Below, one piece after another: positions 1,262 to 12,443 of a DNA stretch of 64,000 nucleotides (the stretch's first letter is position 1; each line of letters begins with the position of its first letter). A program made the translations under genes and the position numbers. The notes below the pieces were generated by a model. The model searched no databases. It was not told the origin of the DNA and saw only the letters and a program-made list of their open reading frames with translations. Origin of the DNA: Escherichia phage SKA64; the sequence record OM362897.1; one strand, written 5' to 3'.

Positions 1262-1696
1262 ATGTTACAAGTTCCTGCTAAGTTTGTTGAAGGCGCTATC
1301 CACTCTTACCGTCAAACATGTAAGAGGGCAAGAAACTGTTTAGATGGTCTGGTGGCAAAAACCTATACTGTTGAAAAGAAGAAACGTTGGTTTGGCAAAG
1401 ATGTTTACGAAGTTAATATTTTTGGTGAACATAAACTAAACCACGATACTCCTGAAAACATGTTAGAAATATTTCTAAGAGATGACAAAATATCTCCTAT
1501 GGATTACCAACTTTTAAAATTTTATGATTCTTCTTTGGCTATTGATAAGTTTGTTGAAGATATTCTGTCTAGAAAAACAGATAAAAACACTTATCCTCTA
1601 GAAGCTGATCAAATAGGATTATTAAACGAGATTTCATCCTTTAAAGAGTTGGATAATATTACAAAAGAGGAGATTTTAGATGGCATTAGATTATGA
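1262..1696 (+). CDS. hypothetical protein
   Basis: ORF track; AGGAG upstream; same-strand packing. Confidence 0.55.
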   Translation: MLQVPAKFVEGAIHSYRQTCKRARNCLDGLVAKTYTVEKKKRWFGKDVYEVNIFGEHKLNHDTPENMLEIFLRDDKISPMDYQLLKFYDSSLAIDKFVEDILSRKTDKNTYPLEADQIGLLNEISSFKELDNITKEEILDGIRL

Positions 1697-2189
1697 TCGC
1701 CCAACGAGCGATTATTATCCAACACCGCAAAAAGCAATCAATAGTTTGTTTAGTGTTATAGATTTCAAAAATCTAAAGGAAGAAGGTTGGGTTTTTGCAG
1801 AACCTTGCAGAGGTGAAGCTGAAGCGATTTATCGCCATTTTCCTGAAGGTTCAGAATATTGCGAACTTGAAGAAGGTAAAGATTATTTTAGTCATGAATG
1901 GGAAAATCGTCCCGACATTATAATCACAAATCCTCCATTTAAGTTAGCAATGGAGTTCTTGGAAAAGAGCTTAAAAGAGGCGGATGTTTGTATTTATCTT
2001 CTTCGGTTGGGCTTCTTGGAGTCAAAGAAACGACGAGAGTTCCATCAAAAGAATCCACCAACAAACCTTATAGTCCTTTCAGAACGGCCTTCGTTTGTTG
2101 CAGGTGGAACAGATAAGACAGCATACGCTTGGTATGTATACGACCCAAAGAATCGTTTGGGCCTCTCTCAACCATTTTATTTTGTTTAA
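1680..2189 (+). CDS. short Rossmann-fold methyltransferase-like protein (NPPF motif; N6-adenine/amino-MTase-like)
   Basis: FAEPCRGEAEAI (motif I-like) then IIITNPPF (motif IV of amino-methyltransferases); only 169 aa. Confidence 0.45.
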   Translation: MALDYDRPTSDYYPTPQKAINSLFSVIDFKNLKEEGWVFAEPCRGEAEAIYRHFPEGSEYCELEEGKDYFSHEWENRPDIIITNPPFKLAMEFLEKSLKEADVCIYLLRLGFLESKKRREFHQKNPPTNLIVLSERPSFVAGGTDKTAYAWYVYDPKNRLGLSQPFYFV

Positions 2190-2895: not shown

Positions 2896-3468
2896 ATGCG
2901 TTCAACTTTCACTGGCAAAATAAATGCTGGTTTGATTTTTACAGCAGTAAGCATTCTTAGCAAAAAGTTTAAAGTTGTTAACTTACCTGTGTGTGTCGAT
3001 TTCGATCATGTTTTTGATCCTTCGAACCCCACTCGTTGCATAGTAAGGAGTAATGTTGAAAACCCAACAGAAAATCTTTTTTATGTAACAAAACCATCTC
3101 AAAGCATACTTAACCAGGTTGAGGCGAAATTGATACCTAACGGTAAATATTACTCCTTTTTACCTTGTAAGTCGGTTGAAGTAGAGAATAGCAATACTTT
3201 CGCTAATAACTTGTCTGTATTCGTTTTCTTTGTTTCACAGGAAGACGAAACAGATGAAATGGTAGCAACAGTGAGATCACTTTATGACTCTTTAGGGGTT
3301 GTTTATAGTCAACAAGTGTGCGAAAATAATAAAGCCTGTGTAGATTTCATTATCAACGGTATTTGTGTTTGTAGAGTAGAATCTTTTTGGCTGCACGATA
3401 CATATGTGACTGTAGCAGAGGTTATATCTGAACCAAGATTTAGTCATGCGGTTTCGTTAATAATTTGA
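2896..3468 (+). CDS. hypothetical protein
   Basis: ORF track 2878..3468; ATG at 2896 after GAGGAG chosen. Confidence 0.55.
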   Translation: MRSTFTGKINAGLIFTAVSILSKKFKVVNLPVCVDFDHVFDPSNPTRCIVRSNVENPTENLFYVTKPSQSILNQVEAKLIPNGKYYSFLPCKSVEVENSNTFANNLSVFVFFVSQEDETDEMVATVRSLYDSLGVVYSQQVCENNKACVDFIINGICVCRVESFWLHDTYVTVAEVISEPRFSHAVSLII

Positions 3469-3478
3469 GGAGGAAGGA

Positions 3479-3808
3479 ATGGAAATTACTACAGAACAAG
3501 CCCTTATCGATGAGGGTCGTAAAATCTTAGAAAAGTATTTAGGGGAGATTCATAAAACCCCTGGCTATTTGGGTTGGAGAATTGTTGAAGCTGTAGATTT
3601 CCTTCCTCGTAACAGTAAAAACGTCGAAATGCGATCTCTTTTCTTATTAGTAAAGGTGGATGGGGATACGCCTTTTAAAGATGCCGCAGAACATATTGAA
3701 AAAGTTGAAGAGAAAGCTTATGCAGAATTTGCCGATCTTGTTTTAGAACAAGAGATTGAAGGAAAGGTGAATATTTTTATTTTCTTAGATTTTGAGGAGG
3801 ATAAGTGA
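3479..3808 (+). CDS. hypothetical protein
   Basis: ORF track; GGAGGAAGGA RBS. Confidence 0.55.
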   Translation: MEITTEQALIDEGRKILEKYLGEIHKTPGYLGWRIVEAVDFLPRNSKNVEMRSLFLLVKVDGDTPFKDAAEHIEKVEEKAYAEFADLVLEQEIEGKVNIFIFLDFEEDK

Positions 3809-4548
3809 TCATACACAGAGAAATTACTGTTAAAAGCGATCAAGATCTTTTTATAATTGGAGATCTACACGGTTGTTATAATTTGTATGAAAAAGGAAAG
3901 GCAAAGTTAGGTATCCGAGATACAGATGTGGTTGTATCTCTAGGAGATCTTACTGACCGTGGAAAGCAAAACTTTCGTTGTGTTTTAGAATTTACTCGTA
4001 AACACAATCGCTACGCTATTCGTGGCAATCATGAAGACATGATGATTAAAGGTATGCTGGAAGGAGATCGTAGCTACTACGAGTGTTGGTATCAAAATGG
4101 AGGATATACGGTCTTTGAAGAATGTGGTGAAGAAGGAGCTACAGCCTTAGCAATGATGACAGAAGATTTACCTGTTGTTCTCATTGTTAACTACAGAGGC
4201 ATGAAACTTGCGTTTATTCATGGTGGGTATCCATCTTCTTTGGAATATCTCCCTGTAACAGATATTCCAGAATACATTTCGAAGATGACAAAAACACAGG
4301 AAAACCGTTTTGCTGAAGCACTTATGTGGGACAGAGATATGGTAGACTGTGCTAAAGAGGGAATGAAACTTCCTGTTGTGATGGGTGTGGATTATGTGTT
4401 TCATGGACACTCTTATGTAAAAACACCTATTATCAATGCGAATCGTGTTTATATGGATACTGGATCTGTGTTCAATAATAACTTAACATTTGCTTATTTC
4501 GATATGGACGGTGGTCTTCAATTTTATTCAACTCTTGAGGAGGATTAA
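3805..4548 (+). CDS. PPP-family Ser/Thr protein phosphatase / calcineurin-like metallophosphoesterase
   Basis: GDLHG, GDLTDRG and GNHE motifs in canonical order; 247 aa. Confidence 0.8.
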   Translation: MIIHREITVKSDQDLFIIGDLHGCYNLYEKGKAKLGIRDTDVVVSLGDLTDRGKQNFRCVLEFTRKHNRYAIRGNHEDMMIKGMLEGDRSYYECWYQNGGYTVFEECGEEGATALAMMTEDLPVVLIVNYRGMKLAFIHGGYPSSLEYLPVTDIPEYISKMTKTQENRFAEALMWDRDMVDCAKEGMKLPVVMGVDYVFHGHSYVKTPIINANRVYMDTGSVFNNNLTFAYFDMDGGLQFYSTLEED

Positions 4549-4856
4549 TGTATAAGATTACAATTATTCAAAGTGTAGGTAATATCCGTAAAGAAGTTAT
4601 CTTAGAAACAGAAGATGTTAATCTTGTTCGTGAGATTGTTCTTAAGGAAGATAACCTGCAAGCTGTAGAATCAGATGCACCGAATCTTATGGTGGATCAA
4701 GAATATTCTGAACTTCGTCGTATTTTTGAAGAGATTCAGAAGAAAGAAACACAACCGACCATAAAACCTTTTGGTCCTTATGATCCGAGCAATCCTAGCA
4801 GTCCTTGGATCATGAGAAATACGGAACCGTATACACCTTTTGAAATTACTTGTTGA
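4548..4856 (+). CDS. hypothetical protein
   Basis: ORF track; ATGA overlap with phosphatase stop. Confidence 0.5.
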   Translation: MYKITIIQSVGNIRKEVILETEDVNLVREIVLKEDNLQAVESDAPNLMVDQEYSELRRIFEEIQKKETQPTIKPFGPYDPSNPSSPWIMRNTEPYTPFEITC

Positions 4857-5445: not shown

Positions 5446-5947
5446 ACGTAAACGTGGTGAACAAAGAACAAACTTGGCAGAAATCTTAGATTACAACATG
5501 GTTAATGATGTGACAAAAGAAATTCTCCCTGTTGTAGAAGATATTCTTCGTAGAGGGTTACGATTCTGCTCGGATCGGGTGCATTTCATGTGGACACATA
5601 AAAGTGACTCCTCTTTGAATTTTTATCCTTTAGACTATACTCTGAACAATACGGAGATGAAAGATATCAACAAATATTTAATGGGATATAAAGATATAAC
5701 CGAAACTGTTCTTGGAGAATTGGCAGAAATCTTGGCTAATGATATCCTTAGAAATATTAATAAGGCTCTTGACAGAAGCCCAGCAGGAGTAGTAGTATCT
5801 TTTGCTGTGCCAGATATGGTTAAATATGAGTCTACAATACCTAATAAAGCTTATGCCTTTCTTCGGAGAGACGTTCGTGGAAATGTGTTGGAGATGGAGT
5901 CAAACTACAAGATTGAGGAGGTTTTATGGCAGAGTTCGGATCAGTAA
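5435..5947 (+). CDS. hypothetical protein
   Basis: ORF track; GTG start overlapping upstream stop; alternative ATG at about 5495. Confidence 0.45.
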   Translation: MIPRRKRGEQRTNLAEILDYNMVNDVTKEILPVVEDILRRGLRFCSDRVHFMWTHKSDSSLNFYPLDYTLNNTEMKDINKYLMGYKDITETVLGELAEILANDILRNINKALDRSPAGVVVSFAVPDMVKYESTIPNKAYAFLRRDVRGNVLEMESNYKIEEVLWQSSDQ

Positions 5948-6216
5948 CAAGTTTTGAAAGTAACTTCGTTACCGCTTGGGAAGCTTGGGATGAAATGGGT
6001 GTTGGGGAACTTTATTTTTACAATGTAACACTACGTCCAGAGTATGCTTACCTGGTACCAGAAGGAACAGTTCAAATTGGCATGTATTTGTCTTCTCAAG
6101 ACGGTGTTGTTCAATTTGAGTTTTATTCTAACACAACGGACAACGAATTTACATACCGCGCATTTCATGTCAACATGTCTTTAGGAGAGGAGAAATTTTA
6201 TGACGACCAAGTTTAA
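5926..6216 (+). CDS. hypothetical protein
   Basis: ORF track; GAGGAGG upstream. Confidence 0.45.
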   Translation: MAEFGSVTSFESNFVTAWEAWDEMGVGELYFYNVTLRPEYAYLVPEGTVQIGMYLSSQDGVVQFEFYSNTTDNEFTYRAFHVNMSLGEEKFYDDQV

Positions 6217-6397
6217 AACAGTAGAAGAAGCCGTAAAAGCAGCTTATGAGGCTTTAGCGGAAGCAGAACAGTTAGCAGACGAGACTGGTGAAGGTTTCAG
6301 TTTCTCCCCTGAATATGGGATGGGTGGTTATTATGATCCAGAAGATGAAAATGAGAATACTGGAACAAATTGGCATCCATCTTCTTTAAGTTGTTAA
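6200..6397 (+). CDS. small acidic protein, member of tandem family with C-terminal W-x-SS-x-SC
   Basis: ORF track; ends TNWHPSSLSC. Confidence 0.5.
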   Translation: MTTKFKTVEEAVKAAYEALAEAEQLADETGEGFSFSPEYGMGGYYDPEDENENTGTNWHPSSLSC

Positions 6398-6408
6398 TAG
6401 GAGGTAAA

Positions 6409-6678
6409 GTGGGAATCGAAGATATCAAAGGTTATAAACCGCATACCGATGACAAAATTGGTAAAGTGAATGCTATTAAAGATGCTGAAGTTCGATTAGG
6501 ATTAATCTTTGATGCTCTAATGTCTGAATTGTGGGCTGAACTGGATGATTGTGAAGATTTGGAAGAGTCTACCAATATATCCACCCGCCTTGACCAAATT
6601 TCAATAGCAAAGACTAAGTTGAAAGAAGCTTCTATGTGGGCCTGTCGTTCCGTTTTCCAACCAGAGGAGAAATACTAA
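6409..6678 (+). CDS. hypothetical protein
   Basis: in-frame GTG at 6409 after AGGAGG (6399-6404) preferred over track start 6370. Confidence 0.4.
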   Translation: MGIEDIKGYKPHTDDKIGKVNAIKDAEVRLGLIFDALMSELWAELDDCEDLEESTNISTRLDQISIAKTKLKEASMWACRSVFQPEEKY

Positions 6679-6896
6679 TGAGTTATCGTAATGTTGAAGA
6701 ATTAACTGAAAAAGCCCAAGCTATTATGGCTTTGGTGGACGAACTTACAAAAGAAGCTGAAGATGCTGGTTTTGGTCTTAGTTTAGAAGATGACGCAATC
6801 TGTTTTGAAGATTGGCAATCCTCTTCTTGTTATGGTGAAGGTGATGATGGTTTCGTTGTTAATTCTCAAGGCGTTTGGCACAGTAGTAGCTGTTAA
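6678..6896 (+). CDS. small acidic protein, tandem family member
   Basis: ATG 6678 after GAGGAG; ends QGVWHSSSC. Confidence 0.5.
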   Translation: MSYRNVEELTEKAQAIMALVDELTKEAEDAGFGLSLEDDAICFEDWQSSSCYGEGDDGFVVNSQGVWHSSSC

Positions 6897-6905
6897 GGAG
6901 AGATT

Positions 6906-7178
6906 GTGGAGTCTGAAGGTGAACTGCTGATAAAAAAGAAAGTTAAAGAGATGGAACAAGCACAAAGAAAGTTTCGTAAGGAAATTGAAGAACTTTGTGA
7001 ACAGTTTCAGGAACAAGCTTGGATAGGTGACTACGGTAACGGAGAAACTTATTACCCTACAGGAACGCCAGCCGCAGATCACTATATTGATTTCATTTGT
7101 GAAGATTATGGTGTAGAGTTGGATGAAAATGGTTTAACCACAAGAGGTGTTTGGATCTCTTCTTCCTCAATGTGTTAG
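6906..7178 (+). CDS. small acidic protein, tandem family member
   Basis: GTG 6906 after AAGGAGAG; ends RGVWISSSSMC. Confidence 0.5.
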   Translation: MESEGELLIKKKVKEMEQAQRKFRKEIEELCEQFQEQAWIGDYGNGETYYPTGTPAADHYIDFICEDYGVELDENGLTTRGVWISSSSMC

Positions 7179-7186
7179 TAAATAAT

Positions 7187-7210
7187 AACCCGCTTCGGCG
7201 GGTTTTTTAT
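7187..7210 (+). terminator. rho-independent terminator
   Basis: aacccgcttcggcgggtt hairpin followed by TTTTTT. Confidence 0.7.
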
Positions 7211-7238
7211 TGACAGGAATCTGGAAGCCTGATAAACT
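7210..7238 (+). promoter_or_regulatory. sigma70-like promoter
   Basis: TTGACA, 17 bp spacer, TAAACT, about 30 nt upstream of gene at 7269. Confidence 0.4.
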
Positions 7239-7268
7239 TAACCTATCAACCAATAGAGGAGAAATATT

Positions 7269-8210
7269 ATGGTGTTAATTGGTAGCCGTGCATTACAAAT
7301 TCATGCTATGGACATGGGAAAAGACTTGTATCGCCCTTGTGTAGATTTAGATTACCTGTGTACAGAACAAGAGTGGGAAGAATTATCAAAAATGTTCTCT
7401 CAAGACGAGTTTGTTGAACTTGTAGAACGTAAAGGGAGCAAAGGCCATGTCAAAATGATAGCTGGTGCACATTTGGAATACGATATTGCTTCTCAAGGAG
7501 ATAGCACAGAAGCTTTGATTAGTTATTGTGAAGATTCTGATGATGTTCGTCGAACTTACGCTGGACATGTTGTTGCTCCTTTAGATGTGCTCTACCTTCT
7601 TAAAATGAGTCATCGTTTTAAAAAGGATAGTCCTCACTTCTTTAAAACTATGAAAGATATTCATTTCATGCGGTCACTGGGCGCAAAGATCCCAGAAAAT
7701 CTTAAGAGTATTTATGAGTTGCGTGAGAAAGAAACATACACTTACTCTCATCCGAACTTAAACGTAAAAAGTAAAGAGTTCTTTAAAGGTGACGAGGTTC
7801 CGTATGTTTATGATCATGATTCTATCCATGAAGCAATCGCGTTAATGGATGCTCCAGCATATAAATCTTATATGAAAGATGGAAGTGAAGTTATGACCAG
7901 CAAAGAAAAGTTTTTTGCTCAACCAAAACATGTGCGGCTGTTAGGTGTTTATGAAGAAGCGTGTGTTTTGGCTTTGGAACGTTCACAAATTCCTTTCGGT
8001 GAAGAGATCGGAGGTCCAACCCCTAAGCAAAGTTTTATAATGGCTTTATCTAAAGTCTGCACATCCATCACTAGTGGTTGGTTTAGGGAATATGCTTGGG
8101 AAAACTTTTATGTTGTTATTAAGCTATATGAAAACATGGGCGAAAACGACTATGTTGAACGTTTTAAAGCTAATCAACATGTAGTAAAGCCTTTTGAAGG
8201 AGGTTATTAA
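7269..8210 (+). CDS. hypothetical protein (313 aa); weak minimal-nucleotidyltransferase-like N-terminus
   Basis: ORF track; AGAGGAG RBS; N-terminal LIGSRAL...VDLDYL loosely resembles GS...DxD NTase signature (spacing atypical). Confidence 0.55.
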   Translation: MVLIGSRALQIHAMDMGKDLYRPCVDLDYLCTEQEWEELSKMFSQDEFVELVERKGSKGHVKMIAGAHLEYDIASQGDSTEALISYCEDSDDVRRTYAGHVVAPLDVLYLLKMSHRFKKDSPHFFKTMKDIHFMRSLGAKIPENLKSIYELREKETYTYSHPNLNVKSKEFFKGDEVPYVYDHDSIHEAIALMDAPAYKSYMKDGSEVMTSKEKFFAQPKHVRLLGVYEEACVLALERSQIPFGEEIGGPTPKQSFIMALSKVCTSITSGWFREYAWENFYVVIKLYENMGENDYVERFKANQHVVKPFEGGY

Positions 8211-8211
8211 T

Positions 8212-8607
8212 ATGTGTGGATATCTTTCAGAAAGTTATTTCAAAGTGACGCATGAGGATTTAGAAAAAGCACGATTGAAACTGACAGCTATTATTGAATA
8301 CTCTAATACTGTTGAACACAGATTAAAGACTACTAAAGTATCTGTTCCTTGTTGGTTAGGTTTACGGCATAAAATAATGTCTCAACATGACCATGTTGTT
8401 CGAGAGATGCATGGTTGGTGTTGGTTTCACGATGTGGCTCTGCATTTTGGTTATATTACAGAAGAAGAGCATAGATTCTGTGAACTAACATATCGTATTC
8501 CAACCCTTCACGATTTAGATTTGTGGAAGAAAGCAAACGAGATTTTTCTTACAGAAAGTGATTGGCGTAAAGTTATGGCTTGTCTTGAATGGAGGGGTAA
8601 TGAGTAA
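8212..8607 (+). CDS. hypothetical protein
   Basis: ATG 8212 after GAAGGAGG preferred over TTG 8194. Confidence 0.55.
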   Translation: MCGYLSESYFKVTHEDLEKARLKLTAIIEYSNTVEHRLKTTKVSVPCWLGLRHKIMSQHDHVVREMHGWCWFHDVALHFGYITEEEHRFCELTYRIPTLHDLDLWKKANEIFLTESDWRKVMACLEWRGNE

Positions 8608-9283
8608 AACAGTTTTGTCTATGTTTGACGGATCTGGGATCATGGTGTTACGTTATGCCGAAGCAGGTCACAAGTGTTTTTGTGTAAACGCTGATGAAGG
8701 GGATCACGGTAAATACGAGGTTAGGATGGAGCACCCAAACATAACCTATGTGAATGCCTGGATAGATTCTACATTCAACCCTGAAGATCATGGGATACCT
8801 AAACCCGATATTATTTTTGGATTTCCACCTTGTACTATGTTAGCAGGTAGTGGTAGCAAACACGAACGTAGCACAGAGGAATTAGATGAAGCTTTAGCTA
8901 ATATTCGTGTAGTGGAAGCTTTGGGTAACAAATATAATGTTCCTTGGATGATTGAGAACCCAGTAGGTAAACTTTCAACCTTATGGCGTAAACCCGATTT
9001 TTACTTTGATCCTTATGAATATGGTGGGTATTTGTTTGAAGAGGAAGGAAGCTTTCATCCTAAAATGCCTACCCGTGATGGGTATACAAAGAAAACTTGT
9101 ATTTGGCACGGCAATGGTTTTGTTCAACCAGTGAAGAAACCAGTAGATCATATAGGCTGCTTCTGGGGTTGGAAAAGCTTAGGTGGAGCTAGTGCAAAAA
9201 CAAAACAACTTAGATCCCTAACCGCACGTGGTTTTGCTCGTGCCGTGTTTTTGTCTAACAATCTTCTAGATAAGGAGAAATAA
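8600..9283 (+). CDS. short C5-cytosine methyltransferase-like protein (catalytic core only)
   Basis: ATG 8600 after GGAGGGG; SMFDGSG (motif I-like), FGFPPCTMLAGSG (motif IV Pro-Cys-like), MIENPVGK (motif VI ENV-like); no obvious target-recognition domain at 228 aa. Confidence 0.45.
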   Translation: MSKTVLSMFDGSGIMVLRYAEAGHKCFCVNADEGDHGKYEVRMEHPNITYVNAWIDSTFNPEDHGIPKPDIIFGFPPCTMLAGSGSKHERSTEELDEALANIRVVEALGNKYNVPWMIENPVGKLSTLWRKPDFYFDPYEYGGYLFEEEGSFHPKMPTRDGYTKKTCIWHGNGFVQPVKKPVDHIGCFWGWKSLGGASAKTKQLRSLTARGFARAVFLSNNLLDKEK

Positions 9284-9933
9284 TGTCAAATTCAAAACCA
9301 GTAGTTGCTTATCAAGTAGATCGTAATGATGGTGAAGGAAGTGTTGTTATTTTCAGTACACACGGTCTTGAGGCTCGTCGAAAAGGTGCATATCGTTTAG
9401 AATGTGAGTTTGAAGACTGCACAAGCCACCGTGTGAAACAATTCGATCAATATGCTGATAAAGGCTTCGTCCCTATCAAAGCCTTACTGGAAGATGGTTG
9501 GTGGGTATATTCTGCTTTTGATGGTGTTAGACTCGACGAACCTGTAGGAGGTCTTGAGGCAGATTTTGACGAATGCGAAGATGGCTTGTATATTGAAGAG
9601 GATCTTGTATTTTCCCTTGACGAGAAAAGCGTGTGGAAGAACTGGGAAGAAATGGAACGTCACGCGCATTTTATCAACAATGCTTTGATTCGTAAAGCTT
9701 GGTTTATGGAGGCGGTGAAGGTAGCGTATCCGCAGTTCACCTTTACAGAGGTTTGGGGCGGTCCACACCACATCACCCATACAGCATTTTTCGACTTCCC
9801 TGGTTCACGTTACAAAGGTAATATAATGTGGGACTGGGATGAGAATAAAGTACCATCTGTTAAAGACTTTCGTTGTTATGTTTGCCAAGGCGATCAAGAA
9901 GCCCTTGACAAATACCTACAAAGTCTGGTATAG
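9283..9933 (+). CDS. hypothetical protein
   Basis: ORF track; ATGTCA overlap with upstream stop. Confidence 0.55.
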   Translation: MSNSKPVVAYQVDRNDGEGSVVIFSTHGLEARRKGAYRLECEFEDCTSHRVKQFDQYADKGFVPIKALLEDGWWVYSAFDGVRLDEPVGGLEADFDECEDGLYIEEDLVFSLDEKSVWKNWEEMERHAHFINNALIRKAWFMEAVKVAYPQFTFTEVWGGPHHITHTAFFDFPGSRYKGNIMWDWDENKVPSVKDFRCYVCQGDQEALDKYLQSLV

Positions 9934-9950
9934 TGCCAGCATCTGAACAA

Positions 9951-9980
9951 AGCCTCCTGTTTCAGGGGGCTTTTCTTTTA
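9951..9980 (+). terminator. rho-independent terminator
   Basis: agcctcctg-tttc-agggggct hairpin then TTTTCTTTT. Confidence 0.6.
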
Positions 9981-9991
9981 TGGGAGGAAAT

Positions 9992-10483
9992 ATGTTTCAA
10001 GTAGAAATTCATGTGCACAACAGTTGTTCAAATTGCGAGACTTGTGGTTACAATAGTTCAACCATGATCACTATTAGCGGAGACTTAGGAGATGCCAAGT
10101 TTGGCGAAGTCGCAAGCTGCTTCAGCGGAGAGGATGCAGATTGGCATGATATTGCACACTGGTTGGTGAGCAAACTAAAAGAAAAAGAGAAACCATTTCC
10201 TACTCTGCTTGATCGTTCTCTTGTGGAAGATGCAGGTAAAGCATATGCAGACTATGCGTATGCAGACGGGAAATATTTGGAAGATGATAAGGCTAACCAT
10301 TTGCTTTATGTTTACTATGAAGCTGAATCTGCCTACGATAATTATTACAGCATGTCCAACATTCTACGTTTGTTTGCGGAGTTTGATATTTACTTTGAAG
10401 TGAGTTATTCTCAAGACGAAGTGTACGATTTGGATGACGAAGATTATGATGATTATGAGGAGGAAGAATGCCAAGACGATTAA
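9992..10483 (+). CDS. hypothetical Cys-containing protein with acidic tail
   Basis: ATG 9992 after GGGAGG; track start 9980 lies in terminator T-tract. Confidence 0.55.
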   Translation: MFQVEIHVHNSCSNCETCGYNSSTMITISGDLGDAKFGEVASCFSGEDADWHDIAHWLVSKLKEKEKPFPTLLDRSLVEDAGKAYADYAYADGKYLEDDKANHLLYVYYEAESAYDNYYSMSNILRLFAEFDIYFEVSYSQDEVYDLDDEDYDDYEEEECQDD

Positions 10484-11268
10484 TAGTGATCAGCGGCGCG
10501 GGTCTAAGCGCCGATAGCGGTGTACGTACTTTCCGCACTGACACAGAAAGTGGCAAAGCTTTGTGGGATGAATACGACCTTTCTGAAGTGTGCGACATTT
10601 TCAACTTCCGTGCTGGATACCAACAAGAACAGTGTGTTCCTGGGGCTGTTGGCGGATTAGATGCAGAGGGATACAACCTCTACCGTAAAACTCATGACTT
10701 CTACAATAAACGTCGCGTAGAGATGGATAGTGTAACTCCTAACGCTGCGCATTACCAGATCGCGGAATGGTTCCAAGAGTACGGCTGTGATCGTGTTATC
10801 AACATCACGACAAACGTAGATGATCTTCTGGAACAAGCAGGTGTTGTTCATGAAGATGTTCTACATGTTCACGGCTTCCTGCCTGAAGTGATCGTAGACA
10901 ATAGAATCATCAAAGATGTTGGCTATGCTGCTATCGATGTGGATGATTACAAGTATGTGAAGCCCAATGTAGTGTTCTTTGGGGAGACTGCCCCATTGTA
11001 TAACGATATGTACCACATCTTAGACGGCTTGACGGCTCAAGATATGGTGATTGTAGTGGGTTGCTCTAATCAAGTTATCAATTTTAACTGGGAGCTTTTT
11101 CCTGCTCTTAACATCGGAACAAAAATGGTTGTAGTTAACCCTGGAGTTAATTACGAAGAAACACTTCTCTATGAAGATCGTGGAGTTTTTGTTTACCGAG
11201 AAAAAGCTGCAACAGCCTTCAGCAATGAAGGTTTCATTAAAATGGTCGAAGACCACTTAAACAAATAA
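10468..11268 (+). CDS. Sir2-family (sirtuin-like) NAD-binding protein
   Basis: GAGLSADSGVRTFR, TTNVDDL, LHVHG, VVFFGE sirtuin motifs; no Cx2C...Cx2C zinc module seen. Confidence 0.8.
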   Translation: MPRRLIVISGAGLSADSGVRTFRTDTESGKALWDEYDLSEVCDIFNFRAGYQQEQCVPGAVGGLDAEGYNLYRKTHDFYNKRRVEMDSVTPNAAHYQIAEWFQEYGCDRVINITTNVDDLLEQAGVVHEDVLHVHGFLPEVIVDNRIIKDVGYAAIDVDDYKYVKPNVVFFGETAPLYNDMYHILDGLTAQDMVIVVGCSNQVINFNWELFPALNIGTKMVVVNPGVNYEETLLYEDRGVFVYREKAATAFSNEGFIKMVEDHLNK

Positions 11269-11277
11269 ACCACTCAA

Positions 11278-11302
11278 GGGGCTTCGGCCCCTTTCTTATT
11301 AG
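11278..11302 (+). terminator. rho-independent terminator
   Basis: aaggggcttcggcccctt hairpin plus T-rich tail. Confidence 0.65.
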
Positions 11303-11311
11303 GAGAATAAA

Positions 11312-11584
11312 ATGACTGAAGAAATCCGTGATTACTACCTTGCACATTACGTTTACTACTTTGCCAATGCTACACAAAAAGGGGAAGGTAATCTTTACTT
11401 GGCAACAGGGCATGGAACAGGCGTTAGGAAATCAAATATTGATAACGCCTTGGCTCAAGTGGCTGCTGGGCTAGAAGATAAACTTCAAACACCTGTAGTT
11501 GTAGTGATGCAAAACATAAGTTACCTAGCAAGCTGTACTGAAACCGAATTTAACGCGTCTGAAACGCAATCTAACGAAGAATAA
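11312..11584 (+). CDS. hypothetical protein
   Basis: ORF track; AGGAG RBS. Confidence 0.5.
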   Translation: MTEEIRDYYLAHYVYYFANATQKGEGNLYLATGHGTGVRKSNIDNALAQVAAGLEDKLQTPVVVVMQNISYLASCTETEFNASETQSNEE

Positions 11585-11587
11585 AAC

Positions 11588-11619
11588 AAAGGCACCCAAG
11601 TGGGTGCCTTTTCTATTTT
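11588..11619. terminator. bidirectional terminator at convergent block boundary
   Basis: aaaggcacccaagtgggtgcctttt with A-run before and T-run after. Confidence 0.6.
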
Positions 11620-11653
11620 AGAGCGTCTCTGTTCGATTTAGGTGGGTTCTAGC

Positions 11654-11884
11654 TTACTTGTGCAGTGCTCTCTCGTATAACTCAATGATCAATTCATCCT
11701 CTACTGTAATACGCGCCATTTGATCCGTCTTGAGTATTGTTGGTTGGTAGTGGTGCATTTCACTATTGATACTACAATCCCATTCGTCATAACCTAAATA
11801 CTCTCCTACATGGACCTTAACCATAAAGGGAAACGGGTTATCTACCAAAAATGCCATACAACCTTCTTCGATTTTATTTAACAC
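11654..11884 (-). CDS. hypothetical protein
   Basis: ORF track. Confidence 0.5.
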   Translation of the reverse strand: MLNKIEEGCMAFLVDNPFPFMVKVHVGEYLGYDEWDCSINSEMHHYQPTILKTDQMARITVEDELIIELYERALHK

Positions 11885-11907
11885 ACGACCTCCTATTGCT
11901 ACAGATA

Positions 11908-11931
11908 TGAAAAAACCCGCCGAAGCGGGTT
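11908..11931 (-). terminator. rho-independent terminator (minus strand)
   Basis: acccgccgaagcgggt hairpin; U-run on minus strand after it. Confidence 0.6.
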
Positions 11932-11975
11932 CTATTGCTACGATAGGATCACTATCCTATAGTATTGTTTCTGTG

Positions 11976-12257
11976 TCAAGCCTTAGCGTAGAAAAACTTC
12001 TCATATTCAGATTTTGTTACGATTGTGGGGCAACCTTTTGTTCCATCCTCGATAACAGGGGCTTCTACCATTCTGGTGTTGAATAAGCAATAAGTTCCAC
12101 GCATGTAAATACCCAGTTTTGTTTCTACGATGTGCTCTTTACTTACGCTTGAAAACTTAATCTCACCATCGGAGTCTCTTATAGCAATAAGCGCATGTTC
12201 GGGCCAATCTTTTCCTTTTGCTCCTAAAGCATTATACAATTCTTGAACGAGTTCCAT
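11976..12257 (-). CDS. hypothetical protein
   Basis: ORF track; GGAGG RBS on minus strand. Confidence 0.5.
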   Translation of the reverse strand: MELVQELYNALGAKGKDWPEHALIAIRDSDGEIKFSSVSKEHIVETKLGIYMRGTYCLFNTRMVEAPVIEDGTKGCPTIVTKSEYEKFFYAKA

Positions 12258-12269
12258 ATGACCTCCTTA

Positions 12270-12443
12270 TTAAATAACAAATTTTTCTTCTTCTGGCTTA
12301 TCGTAATCTGGAGAATAAACATGTGCGGGATTAAAACCTTTAAAATTTCCGCGACCTTTACGTGGACAGTTGAATGTGCGAGCTTGATGATCCCCAAAAG
12401 ATTTCCCACAATGCATACATTTAAAATCAGTGCGTTTAGTCAT
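12270..12443 (-). CDS. small zinc-ribbon protein
   Basis: internal ATG (MTKRTD) with AAGGAG RBS preferred over track start; CMHCGK...NCPRKG cysteine pairs. Confidence 0.5.
   Translation of the reverse strand: MTKRTDFKCMHCGKSFGDHQARTFNCPRKGRGNFKGFNPAHVYSPDYDKPEEEKFVI

Follow-up and report, generated by a model that had tools for sequence, protein, structure and literature searches.

A probable compact Dcm-like DNA cytosine-C5 methyltransferase of the PHROG 757 family in Escherichia phage SKA64

Results

The methyltransferase gene and its surroundings

The DNA analyzed here, referred to as the window, is a 64-kb stretch from Escherichia phage SKA64. An ORF on its plus strand (8600–9283) comprises 227 codons and a stop, with ATG at 8600 and TAA at 9281–9283 (Table 1). 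The start codon, a Shine-Dalgarno sequence and the stop codon were all found, which establishes the gene placed here by the initial annotation as real; the length of 228 residues given there included the stop, and the protein has 227. A longer form proposed by the ORF finder, starting from GTG at 8558, is unlikely because homologs start at the equivalent of M1 and it is ATG 8600 that follows the ribosome-binding site. The stop codon of the upstream ORF (8194–8607; TAA at 8605–8607) is overlapped by the start of the methyltransferase gene, and the start of the downstream ORF (9283–9933) is overlapped by its stop. This tight packing on the same strand is a typical phage arrangement.

Two genes upstream of the methyltransferase, a 313-aa protein containing DUF7277 and DUF7275 is encoded at 7269–8210 (+; E 1.8e-13 and 1.2e-75, respectively; PHROG 2141), and three genes downstream lies the gene for a Sir2-family protein (10468–11268, +; Pfam SIR2 E 6.5e-20; PHROG 2162). 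Three neighboring proteins match only uncharacterized PHROGs. A second unusually small methyltransferase-like ORF of 169 aa is located at 1680–2189 (+) and contains an NPPF motif (IIITNPPFKLAMEF), which is typical of amino (N6A/N4C) methyltransferases. It matched PHROG 799 'DNA methyltransferase' only over profile positions 206–373 of 458 (E 2.8e-59), and the name 'DNA methyltransferase' is also given to its phAPEC8 ortholog, gp177.

Table 1. Features of the methyltransferase gene and its product in the window
Feature	Position	Strand	Basis
CDS, compact Dcm-like DNA cytosine-C5 methyltransferase (probable), 227 aa	8600..9283	+	ORF, translation, PHROG 757, C5-MTase fold
Shine-Dalgarno GGAGGGG, five bases 5' of ATG 8600	8591..8597	+	sequence read directly
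Motif I, F9-D-G-S-G13, AdoMet-binding loop after strand beta1	8624..8638	+	aligns with M.HaeIII motif I
Motif IV, F75-P-P-C78-T79, predicted catalytic nucleophile Cys78	8822..8836	+	C78 invariant 77/77
Motif VI, E119-N-P-V122, ENV-type, Glu would protonate cytosine N3	8954..8965	+	E119, P121 invariant 77/77
Motif VIII-like Y162-T-K164-K165-T166, placed at QxRxR position	9083..9097	+	Y162 invariant; K164, T166 in 76/77
Variable loop aa 176-200, only candidate target-recognition element (miniature TRD)	9125..9199	+	most variable between VIII-like motif and C-terminal block
C-terminal conserved block T201-K-Q-L-R205-S-L-T-A-R-G211-F-A-R-A215-V...N220, motif IX/X-like helices	9200..9259	+	R205, G211, A215 nearly invariant

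Family membership

The protein belongs to PHROG 757 'DNA methyltransferase', with residues 1–225 matching profile positions 13–223 of 247 (E 1.8e-84). A tblastn search identified homologs in 1487 phage records, 1466 of which covered at least 80% of the query. The phages harboring them include Drexlerviridae (among them Webervirus), Kagunavirus, Vequintavirus, Vibrio phages and the P1-like phage D6, and identity to the PHROG 757 members in these groups was 32–65%. The homologs are usually annotated as 'Dcm-like C5 cytosine methyltransferase', 'C-5 cytosine DNA methylase' or 'DNA methyltransferase'. Additionally, an exhaustive HMMER scan of 1.84 billion cluster representatives (50% identity) identified 965 clusters with E≤1e-3, of which 380 reach E≤1e-10. 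Among the full-length cluster matches listed, most are 200–260 aa; the short length is therefore the norm of the family, and a reading of the ORF as a pseudogene or truncation was rejected.

DNA of this region is 96–97% identical to that of phAPEC8-like coliphages (Phapecoctavirus, Stephanstirmvirinae), and ORFs in Escherichia phages BI-EHEC and vB_EcoM_DE16 encode a protein with 100% identity to that of the window. Its positional ortholog in phAPEC8, whose genome is ~96.5% identical over the region, is gp194 (YP_007348443.1), a 'DNA methyltransferase' in RefSeq, and the BASEL phage PaulSarasin encodes a 61% identical 'Dcm-like C5 cytosine methyltransferase' (bas09_0053). No substantive difference separates the window protein from PHROG 757, gp194 or the PaulSarasin protein. 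The ORF is still labeled 'hypothetical protein' in BI-EHEC, TSP7_1 and the original phAPEC8 GenBank record.

Conserved motifs

Conservation was analyzed in a close alignment of 43 homologs and a distant alignment of 77 homologs that are 31–57% identical to the window protein. The three motifs named in the initial annotation are present exactly in the protein (SMFDGSG at residues 7–13, FGFPPCTM at 73–80 and MIENPVGK at 117–124), and they do follow one another as motifs I, IV and VI do in C5-methyltransferases, with FDGSG at 9–13, FPPCT at 75–79 and ENPV at 119–122. In the 43 close homologs, D10-G-S-G13, F75, P76, C78, T79, E119-N-P121, K164, R205, G211 and N220 are invariant. The 77 distant homologs share invariant C78, E119, P121, Y162, W169 and P177 and nearly invariant P76, N120 (each kept in 74 of 77), K164, T166, R205, G211 and A215. 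Because key residues are invariant or nearly so across homologs this divergent, the motifs are not a product of chance. The most variable stretches of the protein are residues 56–70, 146–150 and 181–200.

The F-x-G-x-G motif I loop of C5-MTases is present in the window protein and its close subfamily, where DGSG is invariant, and takes the form [FYC]-D-x-[ST]-G in the wider family. At position 11 of the 77-homolog alignment, the central glycine of this loop is replaced in wider-family members by a bulky Y, R, K, F or H, with Cys78 and Glu119 staying invariant where it is lost. For a C5-MTase clade, such a variant of the AdoMet loop is unusual.

The motif harboring the predicted nucleophile, Cys78, aligns with C82 of K42-type Dcm, a homolog described below; in M.HaeIII and E. 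coli Dcm, its counterpart in the alignment is the PC motif. The residue directly preceding Cys78, position 77, can be P, D, S, V or E, with P in 59 of the 77 homologs and D or S common in the close subfamily. Similarly, Glu119 of motif VI aligns with E128 of K42-type Dcm, and ENPV aligns with the ENV of E. coli Dcm. The QxRxR of motif VIII is absent from the window protein. On the basis of sequence order, YTKKT is its likely equivalent, and the lysines of this motif correspond to K175 and K176, which are mutated in an inactive K42 Dcm.

Predicted fold and relation to canonical C5-methyltransferases

The structure predicted by AlphaFold2 from the alignment of 43 sequences (mean pLDDT 87.4, pTM 0.87) contains the AdoMet-dependent MTase Rossmann fold with C5-MTase-specific topology. 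Only residues 82–86, right after the predicted catalytic cysteine, were modeled below pLDDT 50; in canonical C5-MTases, this position is occupied by a mobile catalytic loop. In a Foldseek search of the PDB, the best 50 matches listed were all methyltransferase or catalytic-domain structures of the DNMT3 family (3A/3B/3C), the best with E ~1e-7. The best structural matches of the model are DNA enzymes, namely DNMT3B, M.HhaI and M.HaeIII. In BFVD, the viral proteins that match best come from Vibrio, Escherichia and Shigella phages and are named DNA-cytosine methylases. Structure had been proposed as a check on the C5-methyltransferase assignment, which the absence of the fold would have refuted; the predicted fold is that of a DNA C5-methyltransferase.

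Sequence comparisons place the protein far from the canonical enzymes. Pfam PF00145 scored 11.6 bits against a gathering cut-off of 22 (E 0.18, residues 4–92 only), and at E≤0.01 this model recognized only 2 of the 77 family members. HMMER searches of Pfam, NCBIfam and the PDB, run both with the protein itself and with a profile of the 77 members, gave nothing significant; the only matches were sub-threshold ones to M.HaeIII and DNMT2, which the profile reached in the PDB with E 0.14 and 0.39, both over motifs I–IV. Alignment of the family to E. coli Dcm by hhalign gave E 0.064 over 66 columns, pairing PC with PC and ENV with ENP. Orthology to the 472-aa host Dcm was rejected on the basis of this weak and short alignment. 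Given the weak scores against PF00145, the PDB and E. coli Dcm, we class the window protein in a strongly diverged branch of the C5-MTase superfamily that by score lies outside PF00145. Its homology to the canonical C5-MTases is supported by fold, motif order and a characterized homolog, not by sequence statistics.

Compared to M.HhaI, M.HaeIII and E. coli Dcm, the window protein is shorter by ~100 or more residues and differs in motif detail, with PCQ changed to PCT, ENV to ENP and, at the putative motif VIII position, QxRxR to YTKKT. The DNMT3A and DNMT3B catalytic domains are only 14–17% identical to it. DNMT3 enzymes act in dimeric or tetrameric assemblies with DNMT3L and also possess domains that read chromatin.

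A short loop in place of the recognition domain

Canonical type II C5-MTases carry a large target-recognition domain (TRD), whereas the window protein has ~25 variable residues instead. No separate target-recognition domain is present between motifs VIII and IX in the AF2 model, and only ~35 residues separate K165 from T201, of which ~25 form the variable loop at residues 176–200. The description of the protein as a C5-MTase core without a proper recognition domain was thus anatomically right, with the usual TRD of 80–100 or more residues cut to ~25. The loop (QPVKKPVDHIGCFWGWKSLGGASAK), which differs from that of K42-type Dcm, holds the highest entropy between the VIII-like motif and the C-terminal block, was modeled at pLDDT 77–97 and is where other family members have as many as 16 and 9 inserted residues. 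The C-terminal block, which forms helices at 199–205 and 210–219 in the AF2 model, probably represents motifs IX/X.

Neighboring genes in other lineages

In order to identify a possible partner, all ORFs of window positions 5600–12300 were compared with the ORFs located up to 3 kb from the homolog (less at record ends) in seven other phage lineages. Besides the methyltransferase, no gene common to the window locus and the seven lineages was found. Dependence on a partner was rejected, as no neighbor within this range is conserved across the eight lineages and the neighbors lack informative domains.

A helicase or primase gene adjoins the methyltransferase gene in several other lineages, which fits a role on replicating DNA, but does not amount to a conserved partnership. 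The mini C5-MTase fold also occurs within larger phage proteins, since two of the BFVD matches, A0A6J5SE15 and A0A6J5NPY6, carry it fused in proteins of 1397 and 1126 aa, respectively, the former annotated as helicase/UvrB. Together, the fusions and the helicase/primase adjacency hint at methylation coupled to replication.

Two other loci harbor additional methyltransferase genes. One is that of the P1-like phage D6, whose mini C5-MTase gene (2971–3651) overlaps the start of a methyltransferase gene resembling the C-terminal half of Dmt (3644–4549), and in the JLBYU41 locus a short ORF named 'putative cytosine DNA methylase' (1–176) lies immediately upstream of the dcm gene. These arrangements indicate that methyltransferase genes cluster in some lineages.

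A characterized homolog, K42 Dcm

Escape mutants of phage K42 from retron Ec86 (Eco1) map to a 711-bp gene named 'dcm' (bioRxiv 10.1101/2023.08.16.553469). The BASEL phage KarlJaspers (Bas06) shares 95% identity with K42 (10.1101/2023.08.16.553469). Expressed alone in E. coli, K42 dcm is toxic when retron Ec86 is present, and its product alone triggers this retron and raises C5-methylcytosine (5mC) in purified msDNA as measured by LC-MS (10.1101/2023.08.16.553469). The C82A/E128A/K175A/K176A mutant of K42 Dcm leaves 5mC at the low empty-vector level and served as the inactive control in plating assays (10.1101/2023.08.16.553469). Later retron papers accept the K42 Dcm result as established.

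The K42-type ortholog was recognized through the Hanrivervirus protein JLBYU41_1 by matching residue numbering, as this gene is 711 bp long and encodes 236 aa with C82, E128, K175 and K176 exactly as in K42 Dcm. JLBYU41_1, which represents the K42/KarlJaspers-type Dcm, is 49.8% identical to the 227-aa window protein over 95% of length, and the four catalytic positions align with C78, E119, K164 and K165. The two proteins come from different phages, a Drexlerviridae siphovirus and a Stephanstirmvirinae myovirus, respectively, and the K42-type protein has five additional residues between motifs IV and VI and a different loop at 176–200. Because this variable loop is unlike that of the K42 type, neither the target sequence nor retron triggering can be transferred to the window protein.

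The activity of K42 Dcm on its own indicates that a member of this family is a C5 DNA methyltransferase that requires no phage partner. Two options offered by the initial annotation consequently lose their ground. A partner-dependent methylase is not supported, given this autonomy, the lack of a flanking gene conserved in the seven other lineages and the family-wide shortness; nor is a different pyrimidine-C5 enzyme, given the 5mC product of a 50%-identical homolog that needs its Cys, Glu and Lys-Lys residues. We infer that the window protein is likewise active.

Site frequencies and candidate specificity

The K42 study took CCWGG as the target from the name 'Dcm' and backed it with three msDNA stem mutants and no methylome; mutation of CCTGG in the msDNA stem led to loss of retron triggering (10.1101/2023.08.16.553469). 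In the window, neither CCWGG (89 observed, 82 expected) nor GATC (342 observed, 312 expected) is avoided. GTAC (66/186), CTAG (56/137), GGCC (25/87) and CCGG (28/78) are avoided two- to three-fold (observed/expected), and GGATCC, CGATCG, CTGCAG and GGCGCC do not occur at all. This pattern suggests selection by restriction systems, except at sites under Dam- or Dcm-type methylation. The normal CCWGG count is compatible with CCWGG protection as circumstantial evidence, and CCWGG is no more than a candidate target of the window enzyme. Literature searches on Phapecoctavirus methylomes and on the biochemical specificity of the family returned only genome annotations.

Discussion

On the basis of its fold, its motifs, its family and the K42 homolog, the gene very probably specifies a DNA cytosine-C5 methyltransferase that uses AdoMet, acts autonomously and belongs to the compact phage 'Dcm-like' family PHROG 757. 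Following the established C5-MTase mechanism, Cys78 of motif IV would attack C6 of a flipped-out cytosine, Glu119 of motif VI would protonate N3, and Lys164 and Lys165 may stand in for the motif VIII arginines, holding the base or a phosphate. AdoMet bound on the F-D-G-S-G loop would then give its methyl group to yield 5-methylcytosine. The loop of ~25 residues at 176–200 would replace the large recognition domain and supply any sequence preference. The gene lies in the early DNA-metabolism region, and post-replicative methylation of phage and host DNA is the most likely role of its product. Protection from restriction is the likely benefit, with the possible side effect that the methylation can be sensed by retron Ec86/Eco1.

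Among the alternatives, the one that survives best concerns the substrate, which could be something other than site-defined duplex DNA, such as single-stranded or hairpin DNA, RNA or tRNA (as for DNMT2), or DNA methylated in a relaxed manner at replication forks. The only demonstrated substrate of the family is the retron msDNA stem-loop, and in dcm+ MG1655 without the phage gene msDNA methylation is low (10.1101/2023.08.16.553469). Host Dcm thus leaves msDNA largely unmethylated, and the phage enzyme therefore does something that host Dcm does not. A recognition element of only ~25 residues would suit a non-duplex or relaxed substrate, DNMT2 is found among the weak sequence and fold matches, and action at the fork would agree with the helicase/primase adjacency and with the fusion to the helicase-annotated 1397-aa protein. 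However, the best structural matches, DNMT3B, M.HhaI and M.HaeIII, act on DNA, and the loss of triggering upon CCTGG mutation in the msDNA stem indicates some sequence dependence. We consider a substrate of this kind unlikely.

An active C5 enzyme might instead transfer something other than a methyl group, such as the carboxymethyl of carboxy-AdoMet, or perform the first step of a cytosine hypermodification. This is considerably less probable still, as the K42 homolog gives 5mC by LC-MS and the score of 8yf3 was no better than those of ordinary methyltransferases. The five genes scanned at 7269–11584 encode DUF proteins, unknowns and a Sir2-like protein, with no TET/JBP-type dioxygenase or glycosyltransferase, and neither type of enzyme is named among the RefSeq products of the phAPEC8 stretches examined. 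Finally, the score below the Pfam threshold, the altered motif VIII and the degenerate motif I of the wider family could point to an inactive or decoy methyltransferase-like protein, one that binds DNA or a host defence factor and leaves DNA unmodified, but this is extremely improbable, as the Cys, the motif VI Glu and Pro, and Lys164 are invariant or nearly so in 77 divergent members, the pattern expected from selection for catalysis, and the phenotype of the K42 homolog needs the catalytic residues.

The protein falls in a family that is already known, annotated, widespread in phages and partly characterized, and the finding is real but ordinary. Its practical outcome is an annotation fix, since several near-identical Phapecoctavirus genomes label this Dcm-like C5-methyltransferase ORF 'hypothetical'. 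The modest scientific point is which sequence such a miniature enzyme recognizes, and how. It is conceivable, although rather doubtful, that enzymes of 200–260 aa are the smallest autonomous DNA C5-methyltransferases, with a mode of recognition unlike that of classical type II enzymes. If so, they may act on a very short or relaxed motif, on hairpin or replicating DNA, or through the DNA-binding surface of a DNMT3-like homodimer. The specificity of the window protein would then differ from CCWGG, and methylation of msDNA by the phage enzyme but not by host Dcm would be explained.

For phAPEC8-like therapeutic phages, the presence of this gene means that their DNA may carry 5mC. Such phages may thereby evade some restriction systems, and the gene may expose them to detection by retron Ec86/Eco1 or 5mC-dependent restriction enzymes.
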